DNA of 13,128 bases from Candidatus Thorarchaeota archaeon (lineage in GTDB: Archaea > Asgardarchaeota > Thorarchaeia > Thorarchaeales > Thorarchaeaceae), in contig JBHLRS010000063.1 of the NCBI GenBank assembly GCA_048882325.1, positions 1 to 13,128 on the forward strand. Reading direction: 5' to 3'. A model generated the notes under the pieces. That model was not told where the DNA came from. It searched no databases and saw only the letters and a list, made by a program, of their open reading frames with translations. The translations under genes were made by a program, and so were the position numbers. Positions 152 through 11,354 of this stretch are shown in pieces. Positions within the stretch are counted from its first letter, which is position 1. Each line of letters begins with the position of its first letter.

Positions 152-186
152 CTGAGAAACTGAAGATAGAAGTGCGCCACTGGTAG
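152..186 (-). repeat. Degenerate copy of tRNA-Asn 3' end plus trailing sequence (att-like site)
   Basis: Minus strand CTACCAGTGGCGC-AC versus tRNA CTACCGGCGGCGCCA. The trailing CTTC..TTCA..TTCTCAG is shared with the copy at 1042-1071. It directly abuts the YkgJ stop codon. Confidence 0.6.
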
Positions 187-1200: not shown

Positions 1201-2382
1201 ATGCCTTGGGACTACGAAGGAATAGCATTCTACATGTGCACAACAGCATGTCCGAATCACGTTCCATTATATAGAGCGTGGAATGGTTCAGATCATTTCT
1301 ACACCACGAGTGTAACGGAATACAATGGACTACCTAGTTCATACTCTCGTGAGGGAATTGCTGGTTATATTGCAAACTCAGCACTACCTGGTCATGTGCC
1401 TCTGTATAGGCTTTACGGGCCTCATATTGATGACCACATGTACACTGCAAGTAAGAGTGAACATGATAACGCAGCCCATCCATGGGTTAGTGAAGGAATC
1501 CAAGGGTATGTTATACCTGGCGGCGCTTCAATACCATCAAATCACGTACCTGTATATCGATCATATAATTCTGAAATTGGAGACCATTTCCTTACTACTA
1601 GTGCAGATGAAATCGTGTCTGCAGGTGGCATTCTATTCCGATATTCAACAGGTTGCGTTTCAGATTATGGTGGGTGTCCGGGAAACAATTTACCTTTGTG
1701 TGTCCCAGAGGGTGAAATATTTCGCTTCTGGTATGATTTAGCAGGATTCCAAAGGTTCTCTCGGTGGGATGATGGTAATGTTTGGGGTTCTGATTTTCGA
1801 GATGCGGCCAACGGTGACCTCGAACCCCAGGGAGGAAGTGATATCCCCGACATCTACCTATTCGCTGGTCATGGTACTTGCCAGAATCCTCCAGTGGCTA
1901 CATCTCCTGACTTTATCAACACTTGTGGCAACTTCGGTACACCGGATGCAACAAGAATAGGAACTCAGTCTCGATGGGGCAACGGAATAGGTAATCTCAA
2001 GTTTGCCTTTATTGATGCCAGCTGTCCCATGGATTTGGTATCTATCAGAAATGAATGGTTCCCTGTATTCCAGGGACTTCATGTAGCTGTAGGTCATTCG
2101 GGTACTACAACTCAGGATTGTCTTGACAGTACGGGTCGAGGAGCACTGTTAGCCGCATACACTTCAGGAGCGTTACCTTATTTTATTCCTCATCTAAGTG
2201 TTGGAGATGCATGGATGATTGCTGGAATAATAGACATTCAGAGAGGGTGCTGCGCTGTTGCCTTGGCCGCAGGTAATGATCGCGCGGATGCTATCGACAG
2301 ACGTGAGAATGAGAAAGTGCGAGAACATAGATCCGATCCAACACCCAACTGGTTTGCTTGGAAATGGATGTGTCGTACATGA
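1201..2382 (+). CDS. DUF5648-like repeat N-terminus fused to a DUF6345-like (putative caspase/clan-CD fold, His-Cys dyad) domain
   Basis: Three HVP(L/V)YRxxxx..DH(F/M)xT(T/A)S repeats. C-terminal IYLFAGHG, RWGNG.NLKFAFIDASC and FQGLH motifs. Purine-rich RBS GAGGGG upstream. Family names recognised from memory. Confidence 0.7.
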   Translation: MPWDYEGIAFYMCTTACPNHVPLYRAWNGSDHFYTTSVTEYNGLPSSYSREGIAGYIANSALPGHVPLYRLYGPHIDDHMYTASKSEHDNAAHPWVSEGIQGYVIPGGASIPSNHVPVYRSYNSEIGDHFLTTSADEIVSAGGILFRYSTGCVSDYGGCPGNNLPLCVPEGEIFRFWYDLAGFQRFSRWDDGNVWGSDFRDAANGDLEPQGGSDIPDIYLFAGHGTCQNPPVATSPDFINTCGNFGTPDATRIGTQSRWGNGIGNLKFAFIDASCPMDLVSIRNEWFPVFQGLHVAVGHSGTTTQDCLDSTGRGALLAAYTSGALPYFIPHLSVGDAWMIAGIIDIQRGCCAVALAAGNDRADAIDRRENEKVREHRSDPTPNWFAWKWMCRT

Positions 2383-2403
2383 TTGAAGGAGAAGGGAATA
2401 CTG

Positions 2404-3297
2404 ATGAATAAAGAAGACAACACATTCAATGCTGAAATGGAACAATTTGCAAAGCTTGCACAAACTCTTGGTCTGACATTGGAGAAAGTCATTAGCAGAG
2501 GATCTGAACGAAATTTGTTAGGCATAAAGTCAGAGTATGTACTGTTCAGCCGGCGACTAGATAGTCGTACATACTTTGTTCAGGACACGAGATATGGAAA
2601 TGGACTTGAAGGTGGGATCTTCCGGGGAACAAAAGAAGAACAATATGAGTCTGCTCGATTTATCTTTAAGCATTTGAATATCCCATTAAATGAGATTGCA
2701 GAAGAAGTCCTGCAAACGGAAATGACTCAGGAAGCGTACGTTCATCAAGAATCCGGAGAGGTCAAACTGGAAGAAGTCCAAGAAGGGAAGAGTTTTGTCT
2801 ATTTTACTCGCCAAATCCAAGACATTCCTGTATGGTCTTCAAATCTAACGTTGGGATTAATGAAGGAAAAGCAAATTGGGTTCATGCAGCTTCATTGGCC
2901 AGAAATCCCTCGTCATGTAATTGAGGAAGCACATAAACTCGCACAAAAAATAGAAGCTGGATGGCGGCCTGATGAACAGAAAGGTGCAATAATCGAGTCA
3001 GTAGAAGCAGGCATTATCCATTCACCAGCTATTGGGTTTGTCATGGATATCTTACCAGTTATTCGTGTTGTCTCTGCGTCAGTTGACAAGAACTTTTCAA
3101 GAAAACAGGTCCTGTATCTAGACCGACACGGTATAGACGTACCACTCCCTCGACATGCTATAATGCCATTTGAGCCAAAACAACAGGAAAGGACTCTAGC
3201 AAAACGTGGTGGCATCTCATTAAGAAATCTGGTTATTGTTGCAGTAATAGTTATAGCTGCCATCATCATATCAATTTACTATGTTCTCTTTGGTTAA
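2404..3297 (+). CDS. Membrane-anchored protein with peptidase-propeptide (FTP/PepSY/YcdB)-like segments
   Basis: Long ORF (track starts it at TTG 2383; ATG 2404 follows AAGGAGAAGGGA). Contains the VYFTRQIQDIPVWSSNLTLGL motif and a C-terminal hydrophobic helix LVIVAVIVIAAIIISIYYVLF. Confidence 0.65.
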   Translation: MNKEDNTFNAEMEQFAKLAQTLGLTLEKVISRGSERNLLGIKSEYVLFSRRLDSRTYFVQDTRYGNGLEGGIFRGTKEEQYESARFIFKHLNIPLNEIAEEVLQTEMTQEAYVHQESGEVKLEEVQEGKSFVYFTRQIQDIPVWSSNLTLGLMKEKQIGFMQLHWPEIPRHVIEEAHKLAQKIEAGWRPDEQKGAIIESVEAGIIHSPAIGFVMDILPVIRVVSASVDKNFSRKQVLYLDRHGIDVPLPRHAIMPFEPKQQERTLAKRGGISLRNLVIVAVIVIAAIIISIYYVLFG

Positions 3298-3308
3298 TAT
3301 TATGAAAA

Positions 3309-3323
3309 TGGCGTCGTCGATAG
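3309..3323 (-). repeat. Degenerate copy of tRNA-Asn 3' end (att-like site)
   Basis: Minus strand CTATCGACGACGCCA versus CTACCGGCGGCGCCA: 12/15, all three differences are transitions. Lies 11 bp after the stop at 3297. Confidence 0.55.
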
Positions 3324-3616
3324 ACCCTTCAAATGAGGAATTAATATGGCAATAATTACACATGACGAAAAATGTAAGCAAGGAGTGAGCATTGTTCTGG
3401 GACATTTTTATTACGAAGTAGCATGAAGGATTACGTTTGGGAAGAATCTTGCAGTGAGGTGCGCAAGCTACAAACCAACAGTATAGAATGGACGTGGCGT
3501 TTAACTATTCCCAAGGATTTACCATCTAAAATCAATCCAAATTGGACTGGACCTAATATTACGATTGATCCCTACGATATTACATTCATCGAAAATTTGA
3601 CTTTATATTTCAACCA

Positions 3617-3634
3617 AACAGCAATGTTAATATT
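3617..3634 (+). promoter_or_regulatory. tRNA-Asn promoter (BRE/TATA)
   Basis: AACAGCAATGTTAATATT with TTAATA starting 35 nt upstream of the tRNA. Same spacing at tRNA-Glu; a related GCAACGTTAATAT precedes tRNA(CAT). Confidence 0.7.
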
Positions 3635-3661
3635 CGAATCCTCAGTCCGACCCCGATACAA

Positions 3662-3859
3662 GCCGCCGTGGCTCAGTAGGTAGCGTGATGTTCCTTTGGG
3701 AACTTCGCACCTAAAGCGACAGCTTTTAGGCGCGATTCGCGTCATGCCGCTTAAGCCTGTTACCTCTCAGTAGGTAGCTGAGAGCCAGACAGTTGTTGGT
3801 CGTAGGTTCGAGAATCGATCTCCTTGCGAGGTCGATCGGTGACCCTACCGGCGGCGCCA
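3662..3859 (+). tRNA. tRNA-Asn: tRNA-Asn(GTT) with four introns (3684-3714, 3721-3753, 3763-3790, 3813-3842)
   Basis: Removing the four segments at BHB-type cut sites gives GCCGCCG TG GCTC AGTAGGTA GAGC G ACAGC CTGTTAA GTTGT TGGTC GTAGG TTCGAGC CCTAC CGGCGGC GCCA: 76 nt, all stems pair, anticodon GTT, discriminator G73, encoded CCA. Confidence 0.93.
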
Positions 3860-3907
3860 TCTACACTATAGTTAACTCATAACATTTCCTTATTCCTGAT
3901 TATCTAT

Positions 3908-6349
3908 CTAGCTTTCGATTGTTTCTCTAAACCATGACTCAGCTTTACTTCGTTTTCGTTCATCATTTGGAGGACAGATTTTCACCCATTGAACGGTGTC
4001 CTCCTTTGAAGATGTAGTAGCCCTCCAACGAACTGATACTTTCTCACCAGTAGGATAATATCTGATTAAATCTGGTCTAACGGTGATTTTGATACCCAGA
4101 CTTTCTGCAACAGCACTCTCATCGTCAACAAGATTACTTCTATTTGCATCCACGGCTGAAACCAGATTCTTCGCTGCACTCGCAACCTCCGAATTGTCAC
4201 TTTTTTGGAGTTGCGATAATGCCGTATAAGATATCCAACTCTGTTTAACCAGATCCTCGGTTTGTCCACCGGATTCTTTTACTAAGGAAATCTCAGACGC
4301 TCCTACTTTGGATTGAAAACCAAACTTGTTCTGTTCATCCTTGATGTACAGAGCTACATTTCTACTCCAGTAAAAGTATCCTGTTGAATCAAATCCCCCA
4401 TCTTCAGGAATTAACTCCTCCAAGTACGCACATCGAGCTTCCTCTGACCAGTTGAGATATCCCTCAGGAAGACTTGGATTTGTAATGGTCTTGTTTCCAG
4501 GAGTCATTCCTTCATGAATCATGATTAGTCCTATCTGATTCTGAATGTGAACCTCGTATGACCCTGGACGAAGTTTCGGTCTGAGTGTGATATCACCAAA
4601 GTTGCTGAGAATGTCCTGAACGCGATCTATACGTTCGAGATGTTCTTCGTTGTAGGTTATCCTCCCCGACTCTCGTAAATGACAATCACTTACAATAATG
4701 GCTGCAAGACGAGCCTTCAAGACTTCTAATTCCTCTCCCTCTGGAAATCGCGGGTTCTCGATTCCCGCCTGACCATTTACTCCAGTGACCTTGGTCACAC
4801 GCCCCTCCAAATTGGAAAGTTTTCTATCCGTTGAATCAAGATAGAATCTAACAATTTTCCCTTCCAATCGCGTACTCTTCTCACTTATTGGTCTCTTCCT
4901 TGCTGAAGTTCCATCATCTCCTGCATGAAACTGCTTCACAACCTCATTCATGTGTTTCAATGACTTGTGAGGGCTCTCCTCCAGTCCAAATTGCCTCTGA
5001 AGTTCATTGACAATACAGGTGATCTCTTTGTTGTCCCTGAAGTAGTAGAACTCTGTTTCATAGGCGCTGACAAGTTCATCAGACCTGTTCTTCGGAATCC
5101 AAGTGTACATTCTATCATCAACATATGCAACACGGGCTCGATTGTGCTCAAGACCAAGTTTTTGGGTTAGGGATTCCTCAATCTCCTGTCTGTTTGAATC
5201 AATAAACCGTTTCAGTTCAGTATTTTGCTTAGAATCAATCTCTGACTTGAAGTCTGCATACCGAACAGGATGTTTCTCACTTGATTCATCCCTGAGCATA
5301 TGCTCAACAGCTGAAGCTACTCTTTCGGAAGAGAGCCTGTCAGACTCCCACATCTTTTCGATAGACTCTCGAACCTTATGAGGCTCTATCTGCTTGATCG
5401 CTTCTTCCCTATCCCCAACCTCCTGTGTTACACTCTTCCTGATCCTCTCGATGTCTTCAATCTGTGGAGAGTCCTTGGTCCATTCCTCCATTATTCTCTC
5501 TTCTTCATGCTCGCGCAGTCTTTTGATTAGATTAGGCTCAATACCGTTCCTACAATATCCAATGAAGGTGTGACTCACATCGTGCTGTTCAGCAAGATCA
5601 TCCCTCTTTGTAGAATGTTCATCCCTGACTTCATAATAGACCTCACACCGTCTATAATTCTCATCAAAGCCCGCTCGTTCTCGCTCCTCAGGATACTTCT
5701 CTAGTAAATCATCAACATCCTTCATTGATTCAATTTGAGCCTCAGGTAGACCATCATGAACTGACTCGTACATTCGTCTGAGTTCACGGCTCTCGACCTC
5801 TTCTACAATACTTGGTTTTTCAACATCCTCACCGCGGTCGAGCTTTTCGAAATACTCTGATGCCTCAGTTTCATCCTTTTCATAGCTCTTACGCAGTTTC
5901 ATTTCAGAGTGATTCTCAACAGCATTGTCATATTCTTCCTTTGTAGAAATCTCTCCAAAACGAGATTCCTTTTGTTCATACTGTTCCTCAGATGAGTCGT
6001 CTATGACCTCCCTCCTCTCCTGGTCATCAAGTTCCTCCAGAGCTTTCCTGAGTTTTTCCTCAGTGGACTCGTTAGACTTCTCCATCTTCTCTAGGTCCTC
6101 AAGAACCTCGTCAAGCTTTTGGGATATTTCCTCCTCCCTTTCTCTCTCCTCATTCACCTCCTTGACTACCTGCTCGACAATCTCCCTAGCGGAAACCTCA
6201 GCTACTTGATCGGTTTCAGAAGCATCGAGAGCGAGTTCACGAGCACGCATCAATTCAACAGATTCCAAGTCCTCGACCTTGGTTTCATCAACCTCTTCAC
6301 GGTACTCCCTGCGATGACGCTTGATTCCCTCTCCGGACACGCCCTCCAT
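3908..6349 (-). CDS. Free-standing protein with acidic coiled-coil N-terminus, HTH and C-terminal double-motif LAGLIDADG (DOD-type) endonuclease-like domain
   Basis: Motif 1 ARLAAIIVSDCHL and motif 2 AYLEELIPEDGGF, about 95 aa apart. HTH-like RDDLAEQHDVSHTFIGYCRNG. Strong SD AGGAGGT at 6356-6362. No intein splice-junction motifs seen. Confidence 0.7.
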   Translation of the reverse strand: MEGVSGEGIKRHRREYREEVDETKVEDLESVELMRARELALDASETDQVAEVSAREIVEQVVKEVNEEREREEEISQKLDEVLEDLEKMEKSNESTEEKLRKALEELDDQERREVIDDSSEEQYEQKESRFGEISTKEEYDNAVENHSEMKLRKSYEKDETEASEYFEKLDRGEDVEKPSIVEEVESRELRRMYESVHDGLPEAQIESMKDVDDLLEKYPEERERAGFDENYRRCEVYYEVRDEHSTKRDDLAEQHDVSHTFIGYCRNGIEPNLIKRLREHEEERIMEEWTKDSPQIEDIERIRKSVTQEVGDREEAIKQIEPHKVRESIEKMWESDRLSSERVASAVEHMLRDESSEKHPVRYADFKSEIDSKQNTELKRFIDSNRQEIEESLTQKLGLEHNRARVAYVDDRMYTWIPKNRSDELVSAYETEFYYFRDNKEITCIVNELQRQFGLEESPHKSLKHMNEVVKQFHAGDDGTSARKRPISEKSTRLEGKIVRFYLDSTDRKLSNLEGRVTKVTGVNGQAGIENPRFPEGEELEVLKARLAAIIVSDCHLRESGRITYNEEHLERIDRVQDILSNFGDITLRPKLRPGSYEVHIQNQIGLIMIHEGMTPGNKTITNPSLPEGYLNWSEEARCAYLEELIPEDGGFDSTGYFYWSRNVALYIKDEQNKFGFQSKVGASEISLVKESGGQTEDLVKQSWISYTALSQLQKSDNSEVASAAKNLVSAVDANRSNLVDDESAVAESLGIKITVRPDLIRYYPTGEKVSVRWRATTSSKEDTVQWVKICPPNDERKRSKAESWFRETIES

Positions 6350-6424
6350 TTAGAAACCTCCTACAAACATGACTTGACCTTCTTCAGACTATATCGATAG
6401 TATAGTTCATAGAAATCCAAAGGG

Positions 6425-6490
6425 TTTTGCATGCAGATGATTACGGGAAATTCTCTGTCTGTCTCCAGAAATATTGTTTTTTGCATGCAG
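6425..6490. repeat. 12-bp direct repeat TTTTGCATGCAG (palindromic core TGCATGCA)
   Basis: Copies at 6425-6436 and 6479-6490, upstream of the 813-aa ORF. Confidence 0.6.
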
Positions 6491-6609
6491 CGGTCGGATT
6501 TTGGGCTGTTTTGATGGAGAATTTGCTGTATTGAGAGTTATGGGCCCTATTTCAAGGGCTCTTTTGGTAAATTCTGCAATCAGATTTCAACAAAACCAGA
6601 AAACTAGTC

Positions 6610-6629
6610 ACCTACTGAGCCACGGCGGC
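6610..6629 (-). pseudogene. Truncated tRNA-Asn 5' fragment (nt 1-20)
   Basis: 6610-6633 is the exact reverse complement of 3658-3681 (ACAAGCCGCCGTGGCTCAGTAGGT). Identity stops in the D-loop. Confidence 0.85.
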
Positions 6630-6657
6630 TTGTTCTCGGTGTGTCGCTTCTGAATGC

Positions 6658-6675
6658 AATATTAACATTGCTGTT
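6658..6675 (-). promoter_or_regulatory. Second copy of the tRNA-Asn promoter
   Basis: Exact reverse complement of 3617-3634 (18/18), spaced from the tRNA start within 1 nt of the plus-strand copy. Confidence 0.75.
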
Positions 6676-6682
6676 GGTTTGT

Positions 6683-8911: not shown

Positions 8912-9018
8912 TGGTGGGCCCGAGGGGATTTGAACCCCTGACCGATCCCCTATCTGGACGAAATGTCCAGATATACAGGTTATGAGCCTGCTGCTCTACC
9001 AAGCTGAGCTACGGGCCC
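8912..9018 (-). tRNA. tRNA with CAT anticodon, probably Ile2, with a 30-nt intron at 43/44 (8945-8974)
   Basis: GGGCCCG TA GCTC AGCTTGGTA GAGC A GCAGG CTCATAA CCTGT [intron] CGGTC AGGGG TTCAAAT CCCCT CGGGCCC ACCA. The GGGCCC acceptor stem is typical of archaeal Ile tRNAs rather than Met. Confidence 0.9.
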
Positions 9019-9628: not shown

Positions 9629-9706
9629 GCCCCGATAGTGTAGCCCGGCCCAGCATCTAGGCCTTTCGAGTCTAAGACCCGGGTTCGAATCCCGGTCGGG
9701 GCACCA
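9629..9706 (+). tRNA. tRNA-Glu: tRNA-Glu(TTC), intronless
   Basis: GCCCCGA/TCGGGGC acceptor stem, TAGGC-CTTTCGA-GTCTA anticodon arm, CCGGG-TTCGAAT-CCCGG T arm, ACCA end; TTAATAA at 9594-9600. Confidence 0.96.
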
Positions 9707-9894
9707 TTTTCTTTATTCCATAACATGAATCATATGATTCTGCGCCTATGAAGCTCTCATCACGTTGTAGGAAATGCAGGATGAAGCTAGAAAGAGAGAG
9801 ATAGTCCCATTTCCAGATTCTTGACAAGATTCTAATACTTGGCAATGCTAATTGTGTTTACCGTGTTTGCTGGAAACATCGGAGGCTATGAGTA

Positions 9895-10782
9895 ATGAGC
9901 GGATTTGGAACCGTGCGGGTTACATGTCCCAATTGTAATGCCACTTATGGGTACAATATAACCGATTCAAAAAACCTGACTGTAACCTGCCAGAACTGTG
10001 GAAGGTCATTAGAGGTTGAGCTTGTGCCTACGTCTCACCAAGGTTTTGCTGGGGATGGTATGAATGTTGCATGGCCAAAAGTTTGTATGGGCTGTGGAAT
10101 GCAGGAGAATCTGACGACCATCGATGAGCCCTTCAACCGTAAGATGGCCATAAGTAGTACGAAACTTGGAATGCAGACGACAACTAGAATAAGTAGTTTC
10201 AGTGGGGTAGCTAGAATCTCCCTATGTCCAAACTGCAAAAAAGAGGGAGATAGAGATGTCACTTTGCAGCGATTACCTGGCACAATTGCGGTTCTTGCTT
10301 CCTTTTTGGTTTTAGTATTTCTCTGGTTGCCATATGGAGGGATTACAATGCTCTATGGCATTCTCTCCGGGCTATGGATTCCAGTCATTTTTCTCGGATT
10401 GGGTCCGCTTAGATCTACCAGCCTTCTCGATTCATTCGGAAGAATAAATATTCAATACAGGACCGGAAATATTGGATTCTCCTTTAGGAATGCGTTATAC
10501 CACTCTGCATTCAGTGGTATGAACTCTCATTTACAATCTTGGACCTGGGAACAAGACACGCCTCAAGGCTATTCTGATACAAAGGTTGGAGTCAATGTCG
10601 ATGCCGGTTTCAGAATCATATCTATTCTAATGTGTCCAGCATTTCTATTCGGTCTTGTACTTGTTAGCGTTGCTGGATTTGTGGGTGTGGGAATGTCAAT
10701 GGGCATTCCCCTTATTATAGGACTAGTCATCATGGTGCTTCTTCAATTAATGGGGAAAATGAGCAGTGACAAGTCTACTTAG
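9895..10782 (+). CDS. Zinc-ribbon-containing membrane protein
   Basis: CPNC/CQNC and CMGC/CPNC pairs, about four hydrophobic helices, GGAGG at 9881-9885. Confidence 0.8.
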   Translation: MSGFGTVRVTCPNCNATYGYNITDSKNLTVTCQNCGRSLEVELVPTSHQGFAGDGMNVAWPKVCMGCGMQENLTTIDEPFNRKMAISSTKLGMQTTTRISSFSGVARISLCPNCKKEGDRDVTLQRLPGTIAVLASFLVLVFLWLPYGGITMLYGILSGLWIPVIFLGLGPLRSTSLLDSFGRINIQYRTGNIGFSFRNALYHSAFSGMNSHLQSWTWEQDTPQGYSDTKVGVNVDAGFRIISILMCPAFLFGLVLVSVAGFVGVGMSMGIPLIIGLVIMVLLQLMGKMSSDKST

Positions 10783-10833: not shown

Positions 10834-10865
10834 GACCCGAGTTTGAATCCCGGTCGGGGCACCAT
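10834..10865 (+). repeat. Copy of tRNA-Glu 3' end (attR-like)
   Basis: GACCCGAGTTTGAATCCCGGTCGGGGCACCAT, 30/32 identical to 9676-9707. Confidence 0.9.
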
Positions 10866-10942
10866 CTCCATCTAGAGTTTAGGTCTTTTGGAAAAACATA
10901 AACAGCAACCAATACAACTGTATTGCTAGTTGGAGATACTAG

Positions 10943-11242: not shown

Positions 11243-11275
11243 ACCTGGGTTCGAATCCCAATCAGGGCACCATTT
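11238..11275 (+). repeat. Second, more degenerate copy of tRNA-Glu 3' end
   Basis: TCTAA-ACCTGGGTTCGAATCCCAATCAGGGCACCATTT versus 9671-9709: 4 mismatches and 1 gap in 39. Confidence 0.85.
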
Positions 11276-11354
11276 ACTCTAAAATTCTCATTCTATCTGC
11301 TCACATCAAAATTCGCTCTTTGCAATGATCGTACAATAGTTTTTAGAATTTGAA

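Follow-up and report, generated by a model that had tools for sequence, protein, structure and literature searches.

A candidate homing-endonuclease cassette within a broken tRNA-Asn gene of a Thorarchaeota archaeon

How does an archaeal genome come to hold the stubs of one tRNA-Asn gene and, facing the other way between them, a complete tRNA-Asn gene that is interrupted four times and paired with a large LAGLIDADG gene? What makes archaeal tRNA genes carry several introns at odd positions, and occur as fragments or split genes, is a long-standing question, and one proposal is that the disruption of tRNA genes protects against integrating elements. Here, we report an analysis of contig JBHLRS010000063.1 of Candidatus Thorarchaeota archaeon (assembly GCA_048882325.1), whose entire length of 13,128 nucleotides (nt) was analysed and is referred to as the window. 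The contig belongs to a metagenome-assembled genome (MAG) of 3.6 Mb in 89 contigs with an estimated completeness of 93%, and the names borne by homologous proteins assign it to Candidatus Thorarchaeota, an Asgard lineage. We consider it probable that the window harbours a selfish homing-endonuclease cassette which sits inside the native tRNA-Asn gene, has destroyed it and supplies an intron-shielded replacement. The constant core of this cassette is a free-standing LAGLIDADG gene converging on a complete, promoter-bearing and intron-rich tRNA-Asn gene.

A complete and a broken tRNA-Asn gene on one contig

The components of the locus are listed below, the core of the cassette first and the remains of the native gene after it. 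Labels beginning with G and L denote genomes and loci of relatives, respectively, and the genus sample comprised 28 genomes. Chance expectations for repeats and stubs were computed over the window length.

3908-6349, minus strand: free-standing nuclease gene encoding 813 amino acids (aa), with an acidic N-terminus, a helical middle resembling helix-turn-helix (HTH) domains and a C-terminal double-LAGLIDADG domain (aa ~535-813)
3662-3859, plus strand: complete replacement tRNA-Asn(GUU) gene with CCA encoded; exons 3662-3683, 3715-3720, 3754-3762, 3791-3812 and 3843-3859
3684-3714, plus strand: intron I1, 31 nt, at position 22/23, with a bulge-helix-bulge (BHB) motif
3721-3753, plus strand: intron I2, 33 nt, at position 28/29, BHB
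3763-3790, plus strand: intron I3, 28 nt, at position 37/38, BHB
3813-3842, plus strand: intron I4, 30 nt, at position 59/60, BHB
3611-3661, plus strand: the replacement gene's own promoter box (3611-3634) and a diverged spacer of the type found with the truncated stub of the relative L083
3860-3907, no strand: spacer between the converging tRNA and nuclease genes, containing the motif ACTATAGTTAA, which follows the cassette-type tRNA-Asn of relatives, native-type ends having CTTCTT instead
6658-6681, minus strand: promoter box of the broken native tRNA-Asn gene (resembling a B recognition element and TATA box, AACAGCAATGTTAATATT), abutting the conserved cluster of 218-aa and Zip genes; inverted match of 22/24 to 3611-3634, and a spacer of the type of relatives' native genes
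6610-6633, minus strand: 5' stub of the native tRNA-Asn gene, consisting of 4 leader nt and tRNA nt 1-20 (nt 1 at 6629), 24/24 identical to 3658-3681; same junction in three independent assemblies of close relatives
6350-6609, minus strand: conserved leader from the 5' stub to the nuclease start codon, opening with GACTAG and oligo-T; mean identity of 79% in a 413-column alignment with L085, L082 and L083
1046-1071, minus strand: 3' stub of the native tRNA-Asn gene (nt 62-76 at 1057-1071, 15/15) with the native-type flank CTTCTTCATTC; 26-nt match to the tRNA end and flank in L026, with similar matches in other relatives
173-186, minus strand: older, decayed 3' stub whose flank is orthologous to that of the last stub in G018 (107-nt match of 78.5% to L020 6956-7061)
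3309-3323, minus strand: doubtful 3' remnant, 12/15
1201-3297, plus strand: two cargo-like genes (a DUF5648/DUF6345 protein by Pfam and a 304-aa protein of no recognised kind) separating the replacement tRNA from the perfect 3' stub

Once spliced, the tRNA-Asn of the window is identical at 76/76 positions to the intronless tRNA-Asn(GUU) of G018 (locus L020). This spliced alignment was used because ARAGORN, with intron options on, and Rfam both left the four-intron gene undetected. The bulge-helix-bulge rule asks for a 4-bp helix flanked by two 3-nt bulges, and this geometry was recognised at all four introns, with central helices of 4/4, 4/4, 3/4 and 3/4 bp and inner helices of 2 to 9 bp. A pattern search of the whole 3.6-Mb assembly for 5' and 3' ends of tRNA-Asn returned none beyond the pieces on this contig, and the plus-strand gene is thus the only complete tRNA-Asn recovered. 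From its end (3859) to the stop codon of the nuclease gene (3908) there are 48 nt, so that a gene with ORF-less introns (ORF, open reading frame) directly adjoins a free-standing nuclease gene. A partly palindromic motif (core ACTATAGT, often TTAACTATAGTTAA) lies directly 3' of the cassette-type tRNA-Asn in the window (3860-3880) as well as at L017, L019, L022, L081, L082 and L084, and may terminate transcription in both directions or bind a protein.

The longest inverted repeat of the window is a perfect 24-mer (3658-3681 versus 6610-6633), where about 3e-7 such repeats would be expected by chance. An outer inverted repeat (3611-3634 versus 6658-6681) lies just beyond it, and the 24-mer is embedded in an imperfect inverted repeat of 71 nt. 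Aligned to each other, the two copies are identical over the promoter box (18/18), diverge in the spacer and are identical again over the 24 nt of leader and tRNA. The minus-strand copy breaks after nt 20, which is 2 nt short of the intron-1 site at 22/23. By its position, its orientation and its promoter-spacer type, which is that of the intact gene in nuclease-free relatives, it is the native gene; the spacer type is the link here, since the stub promoters carry the one found with the intact native genes of relatives. Read along the minus strand, the native locus thus consists of a promoter, nt 1-20, an insert of 5.5 kb and a stack of old 3' ends. The oligo-T run that follows GACTAG downstream of the 5' stub is likely a stop for the stub transcript, and the 260-nt leader, including the stub junction, can be aligned across the window, L085, L082 and L083, which represent one NCBI assembly and two JGI metagenomes. 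At the other end, the flank of the 1057-1071 stub matches the tRNA end and flank of several relatives for 11 further bases, back to 1046.

A first-pass annotation of this DNA had recognised the promoter and tRNA-Asn nt 1-20 at 6610-6681 with its identical blocks and diverged spacer, the complete tRNA-Asn with its own promoter on the opposite strand, the break 2 nt before the splice site of intron 1, a LAGLIDADG-like ORF and the native character of the minus-strand copy, all of which are borne out here. It had also taken 3309-3323 for a degenerate 3' end. With about 0.3 equally good matches expected by chance, and without the CTTCTT flank that every other stub has, this segment is treated as unproven, the stubs at 1057-1071 and 173-186 being better candidates; the 287 nt between it and the promoter of the replacement tRNA matched nothing among the relatives' sequences compared. 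The orphan promoter does point towards the nuclease gene, as had been stated. That it drives this gene fits poorly with the oligo-T run behind the stub and with the distance between 5' stub and nuclease gene in relatives, which ranges from 0.3 to 8.7 kb.

Three other interpretations of the pieces were rejected. ORF 187-741 as a decayed nuclease found no support (hhalign probability 1.4%). A split, trans-spliced tRNA would need a 3' half, and none exists in the assembly, which holds only the complete gene and 15-nt ends and no piece covering nt 21-76; what comes after the 5' stub is GACTAG and oligo-T. A transposon with the promoter and nt 1-20 as its terminal inverted repeats is out because the corresponding stubs in L028 and G015 are real truncated genes (nt 1-53/55, with introns) and because the stubs keep the native promoter type at the native position.

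The 813-aa protein matched nothing in Pfam (E ≤ 0.01), NCBIfam (E ≤ 0.1), PHROGs, PADLOC or a sequence search of the PDB. Its LAGLIDADG motifs are at residues 548-558 and 643-653, and by its predicted fold it is a LAGLIDADG protein. An AlphaFold2 model of the C-terminal part (residues 400-813, 38 homologues in the alignment) reached a predicted local distance difference test score (pLDDT) of 91.8 and contains a double-LAGLIDADG domain of 280 aa from residue ~535 on, for which a Foldseek search gave a probability of 1.0. Structure comparison with VIA placed this domain closest to the endonuclease domain of PI-PfuI (Z 18.7, root-mean-square deviation 2.7 over 187 residues), with Z scores of 18.0 to I-Tsp061I, 15.6 to I-DmoI and 16.7 to the non-catalytic WhiA. 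Unlike in WhiA, the acids at the ends of both motif helices are kept in the family: position 555 is Asp (D555 in the window) in 37 of 38 members, and at position 650, 26 of the 38 have Asp and the other 12 Glu. Residues 170-545, modelled with a pLDDT of 86.7, gave only small HTH-like pieces (Z 4.5 at best, Foldseek E ≥ 0.057) and no recognisable recombinase fold. Pfam, NCBIfam, PHROGs and PADLOC likewise revealed no integrase or transposase domain in the insert, nor a recombinase domain among all the ORFs of the window. The family as a whole comprises 310 clusters at 50% identity.

Recurrence of the unit and the states of one orthologous locus

The first-pass annotation had proposed to compare the Zip-linked tRNA-Asn locus among related genomes and to look for tRNA genes beside homologues of the ORF, and both comparisons were informative: the former uncovered an intronless empty site in G018 together with nuclease-free intron-bearing and nuclease-bearing states elsewhere, and the latter a co-occurrence with tRNA genes and their fragments. 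In all these genomes the tRNA-Asn gene stands beside the same thioredoxin, tRNA-Met and Zip genes. G018 has an intronless gene in the direction of Zip and no homologue of the nuclease anywhere in its genome. In G024, G005 and G013 the gene at this locus bears introns and is not linked to a nuclease; family members elsewhere are lacking in G005 and G013, and G024 has four paralogues. The tRNA-Asn of G001 runs in the Zip direction and the nuclease converges on it, the state of a cassette in direct orientation. The window and many relatives have the nuclease-tRNA unit reversed, with stubs in the native direction. The nuclease gene is thus polymorphic in presence and absence at a fixed locus among congeneric genomes, and the empty site, the invaded site and the intron-bearing gene with the nuclease gone are all visible at one orthologous locus.

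The unit, a nuclease gene and an intron-bearing tRNA gene converging on each other, was found in more than 20 Thorarchaeota assemblies, and its tRNA partner is specific to the nuclease clade, being tRNA-Asn, tRNA-Phe or tRNA-Asp. Within the genus the nuclease family is patchy and multicopy, occurring in 16 of the 28 genomes with up to nine copies. The full inverted layout, in which a 5' stub with promoter and the nuclease gene face a complete intron-bearing tRNA-Asn gene that is followed by a 3' stub in the native direction, is also present in G014 (L017), G004 (L018) and G008 (L019). The same inverted layout for tRNA-Asn was seen on an ENA scaffold (L028), in G015 over two contigs (L025 and L024), in L089 and in the closest relatives of the window, L085 (nuclease 82% identical) and L082/L083. 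In L085 and L018, 14-24 nt separate a 3' stub from the promoter box belonging to the cassette tRNA, which marks that end of the cassette. When the nuclease clade of the window was scanned with one genome per species, counting loci that have sequence downstream of the gene, all ten further loci had a converging tRNA-Asn gene 55-95 nt past the nuclease gene. Paralogous nucleases converge on tRNA-Phe(GAA) at four loci, on tRNA-Asp(GUC) at one and on one further tRNA; of the tRNA-Phe loci, L062 has the inverted layout with both a 5' and a 3' stub, and L065 the direct layout of tRNA, nuclease and two displaced 3' ends (nt 52-76). A tree of the C-terminal domain resolves two clades linked to tRNA-Asn, one linked to tRNA-Phe and a tRNA-Asp branch, besides deeper branches without a detectable tRNA neighbour. 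An Rfam scan of 17 family loci of the genus at permissive thresholds added just one tRNA, and the deeper clades are therefore not linked to tRNA genes as far as can be detected.

The positions at which the native genes are broken flank the intron sites 22/23 and 59/60. In at least eight cases the 5' stub stops at nt 20-22, in L028 and L025 at nt 53-55, and the 3' stubs begin at nt 62 for tRNA-Asn and at nt 52-57 for tRNA-Phe and tRNA-Asp. Among the tRNA-Asn alleles linked to a nuclease, 21 of 22 have an intron in the T-arm, versus three of six nuclease-free ones, and the two longer victim stubs (L028 and L025) have no such intron and are truncated exactly there, at nt 53-55. Since the genomes are related, this association is suggestive and not a statistical proof. 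Intron 1 was also considered as a shield against the nuclease of the window; this is unsupported, as only about half of the nuclease-linked alleles have it.

The neighbourhoods of the cassettes hold further genes and tRNA remnants. Many relatives encode, directly upstream of the nuclease and on the same strand, a HerA/FtsK-like P-loop ATPase of 500-1057 aa with weak matches to DUF87 and to the HerA models of PADLOC. This ATPase is absent from the window and its closest relatives, which keep the nuclease-tRNA pair. The second clade of nucleases linked to tRNA-Asn has a conserved protein of 185-197 aa between nuclease and tRNA, the best Pfam match of which (E about 0.02) is not significant. The positions are as follows.

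L028 6513-9686, L017 8730-11462, L018 7894-10200, L068 13287-16112 and L081 8459-9988, same strand as the nuclease: HerA/FtsK-like ATPase (DUF87/PADLOC HerA)
L017 6098-6691, L018 12203-12793, L019 3541-4098 and L031 12244-12813: 185-197-aa protein between nuclease and tRNA

Beside a related cassette at L082 (8555-10399) and L083 (3775-5617), the working tRNA-Asn is separated from another truncated 5' stub by genes for a dCMP-deaminase-like protein and a TIR-domain (ThsB-like) protein. This stub bears the promoter-spacer type of the working gene of the window, and the two genes look like defence-type cargo brought to the locus by a replacement of the 5' end. At L088 and L089, a working tRNA-Asn with new promoter and intron 1 is preceded, at a distance of about 125 nt, by a direct-orientation 5' stub that again stops at nt 20, which suggests separate 5'-end replacement events at the D-arm. 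In the window itself, the protein encoded at 1201-2382 joins DUF5648 (E 3.5e-37) and DUF6345, and neither it nor its cargo-like neighbour has a homologue at the orthologous locus in relatives. Displaced tRNA ends are stacked a second time behind the tRNA-Glu(UUC) gene at 9629-9706, the 3' half of which (9677-9715) is repeated directly in two decayed copies (10835-10873 and 11243-11281; 82% and 85% identity); the copies bracket a zinc-ribbon gene (9895-10782) and a 99-aa ORF, and no nuclease or integrase was seen there. A tRNA with anticodon CAU on the minus strand (8915-9018) has a 31-nt insertion between anticodon arm and T-arm according to an Rfam alignment (63.5 bits) and was not reported by ARAGORN.

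Proposed cassette invasion and its alternatives

To the anatomy, the nuclease fold with its conserved catalytic acids, the recurrence, the presence and absence at one locus and the clade-specific tRNA linkage, which are demonstrated, the proposed invasion by a cassette adds that the nuclease cleaves DNA at a given target, that the introns protect the cassette tRNA and that the cassette spreads through the repair of breaks, all of which is inferred. The nuclease would cut intron-poor tRNA-Asn genes in the T-arm, at about nt 54-61, with a second recurrent break in the D-arm at nt 20-22, and the break would be repaired using the cassette. Where the cassette came to lie opposite to the native gene, the native promoter with nt 1-20 and the 3' end from nt 62 to 76 would persist as stubs because the opposite orientation bars their removal by recombination. 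A cassette inserted the same way round as the native gene would put the 5' stub and the new gene in direct repeat, and the two would then collapse, so that displaced 3' ends alone remain, as in G001 and L065. The cassette tRNA itself would be shielded by its BHB introns, above all by the T-loop intron at 59/60, which interrupt the target, and the host could not lose the cassette because it holds the sole tRNA-Asn gene. In its outline this agrees with one of the two scenarios in the first-pass annotation, according to which a selfish element broke the host tRNA and supplied a replacement: the minus-strand stub is native, and the insert holds both the only complete tRNA-Asn and the LAGLIDADG gene. 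The added suggestion that the introns interrupt the nuclease target fares well for the T-arm intron and poorly for intron 1.

Several points weigh against this reading. The evidence comes from metagenome assemblies throughout, and the genomes compared are kin, so that the counts are not independent. No tRNA gene could be detected beside about half of the family members of the genus, and the HerA-like ATPase that many relatives encode directly upstream of the nuclease might indicate a defence module or a larger mobile element. WhiA demonstrates that the LAGLIDADG fold can be used without catalysis. The putative target is read from the scars alone, the way in which the first inverted insertion arose is conjectural, and the break at nt 20-22 demands either a second specificity or a secondary deletion. 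L026 combines an intact nuclease with a tRNA-Asn that has the canonical intron only, and L085, the closest relative, lacks intron 1; intron shielding is hence not universal, and intron 1 is not explained by the nuclease of the window.

The stubs could instead be footprints of integrase-type elements that target tRNA-Asn, with the 813-aa protein as a passenger (for example a WhiA-like DNA-binding regulator or the replication protein of an integrated virus or plasmid) and the inverted tRNA as cargo. The direct arrays of 15-nt 3' ends with their common CTTCTT flank do resemble attachment (att) sites, such arrays also occur in the nuclease-free G018, a similar one follows tRNA-Glu in the window, many relatives have the HerA/FtsK-like ATPase beside the gene, and WhiA has the same fold. 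Against this, no integrase was present in the insert of the window or detected beside the cassettes examined. Insertion by an integrase also rebuilds the tRNA gene and yields direct repeats, not a native gene cut at nt 20 or 53 plus an inverted full copy; in the window the native gene has stayed a stub ending at nt 20, the functional copy occupies the opposite strand and a direct array is formed by the older 3' stubs alone. In contrast to WhiA, the family has retained both catalytic acids, and the spacing of 55-95 nt together with the clade-specific tRNA type is too tight for a passenger, and we give this alternative a small chance. The ATPase likewise inspires a reading of the locus as a two-gene defence or DNA-processing module, a HerA-like ATPase with a LAGLIDADG nuclease, in a tRNA-linked variable island where the tRNA debris is incidental. 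The upstream partner matches the PADLOC HerA models and Pfam DUF87 in L017, L018, L028, L068 and L081, and a TIR-domain gene is among the cargo beside a related cassette. This seems quite unlikely: the nuclease-tRNA pair persists in the window and its closest relatives where the ATPase is missing, the nuclease itself matches no PADLOC model, and neither the clade-specific tRNA partner nor the truncated native genes would be explained.

The other scenario of the first-pass annotation, that the segment 3682-6609 flips through the 24-bp inverted repeat and so changes the promoter driving the tRNA body, is one to which we attach very little weight. It would account for a perfect 24-nt repeat within a 71-nt imperfect one and for a dispensable stub that is still identical to the working gene, and among species the nuclease-tRNA unit does occur in both orientations relative to the Zip gene. 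Yet searches of Pfam and NCBIfam identified no gene for an invertase or other recombinase, junction and orientation agree among close relatives from three independent assemblies, and none of the assemblies compared showed the flipped state, a result with which a rare inversion is still compatible. The stub of relatives, moreover, can comprise nt 1-53 or lie up to 8.7 kb away, and the origin of the duplicate promoter and 5' end and of the 3' stubs would be left unexplained. That the whole arrangement is a false join at the 24-nt repeat in a metagenome contig is next to negligible. The window is, admittedly, one entire 13-kb contig of an 89-contig MAG, but the junction of stub and leader recurs, with sequence divergence, in an NCBI assembly and two JGI metagenomes, and the architecture in at least five further assemblies; as independent assemblies share the junction, it is not an artefact of this contig.

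Known systems and implications

A cassette of this kind has partial parallels in several known systems. In collaborative homing of phages, free-standing endonucleases lie next to an ORF-less intron, as for F-CphI in cyanophage psbA (PMC6083498) and MobE/I-TevIII in T4 (PMC2790892; reviewed in PMC3984707). Here as there, a free-standing nuclease stands beside a gene with an ORF-less intron; on the proposed reading, the intron-less allele is the presumed target here too, and the intron would confer immunity and travel together with the nuclease. The phage systems involve group I introns in a phage protein gene, whereas the introns here are archaeal BHB introns, spliced by proteins, in a cellular tRNA gene; the cassette brings an entire replacement gene together with a promoter, it can lie inside the destroyed target in inverse orientation, and cleavage is a prediction. 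The mORFs of fungal mitochondria, in Allomyces and Glomus atp6 and other genes, carry a replacement gene end (PMC3630166) and are alike in that an endonuclease gene invades a host gene without splicing, provides a stand-in for the part that it displaces and strands the original part as a stub, with displaced ends stacked. They differ in replacing the 3' end of a protein gene in the same orientation, whereas the gene affected here is a tRNA gene, a complete copy of it comes with the cassette, 5' as well as 3' stubs remain and the nuclease is a multidomain protein of ~800 aa.

The monomeric archaeal LAGLIDADG enzymes I-Tsp061I, I-DmoI and PI-PfuI (endonuclease domain) share with the 813-aa protein the double-motif fold (Z 15.6-18.7), the conserved catalytic acids and archaeal hosts with BHB introns, but they reside inside rRNA introns or inteins and are ~170-200 aa long. 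The 813-aa protein is free-standing, has ~530 extra N-terminal residues, lacks a Pfam LAGLIDADG match and is tied to a tRNA gene. In Caldiarchaeum subterraneum, the insertion of a single ORF has stranded a 5' fragment of tRNA-Thr(GGU) and added an intron near 24/25, a polymorphism of the natural population (Sugahara et al. 2012, PMC3293823). That case differs in its direct-repeat layout and in its 813-bp ORF, which was read as a recombinase from a pNOB8-type plasmid, and neither a homing endonuclease nor an inverted replacement gene nor recurrence was described (PMC3293823). SegB of phage T4, likewise a free-standing homing endonuclease, is inherited in association with tRNA genes (PMC13096335, PMC2988022), but it is a GIY-YIG enzyme of a phage, with no broken host tRNA, replacement gene or introns. 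In our searches of the literature, no account of a coupling between free-standing LAGLIDADG genes and the tRNA genes of archaea came up. Particular to the present case are the inverse whole-gene rescue copy, the large family of multidomain nucleases and the full series of states at one orthologous locus.

A 2026 census of tRNA introns in Asgard archaea tested several routes of arrival, found none that explains the pattern, left the origin open and makes no mention of homing (bioRxiv 10.64898/2026.10.13.758758). The locus described here, together with its relatives, provides a testable route, in that a nuclease gene is coupled to an intron-rich tRNA gene with broken intron-poor genes alongside, and the layout of the cassette may explain how archaeal tRNA genes gain introns and fragments. 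A bolder extension, which we regard as possible though doubtful, is that this is a natural cleave-and-rescue drive in Asgard archaea: the nuclease would destroy the single essential tRNA-Asn of naive genomes, the cassette would deliver an intron-shielded rescue, and repeated rounds by paralogous nucleases (the Asn, Phe and Asp clades) would be a main force in installing and fixing BHB introns at D-arm and T-arm sites and in leaving tRNA stubs behind. The design of an inverted, whole-gene rescue copy parallels that of synthetic cleave-and-rescue drives. The 310 clusters of LAGLIDADG proteins of ~800 aa, with their apparent specificity for tRNA genes and no Pfam or NCBIfam model, could also serve as nucleases for long sites. 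If true, a cleave-and-rescue drive would be a concrete route by which the heavily interrupted tRNA genes of Asgard archaea have arrived.

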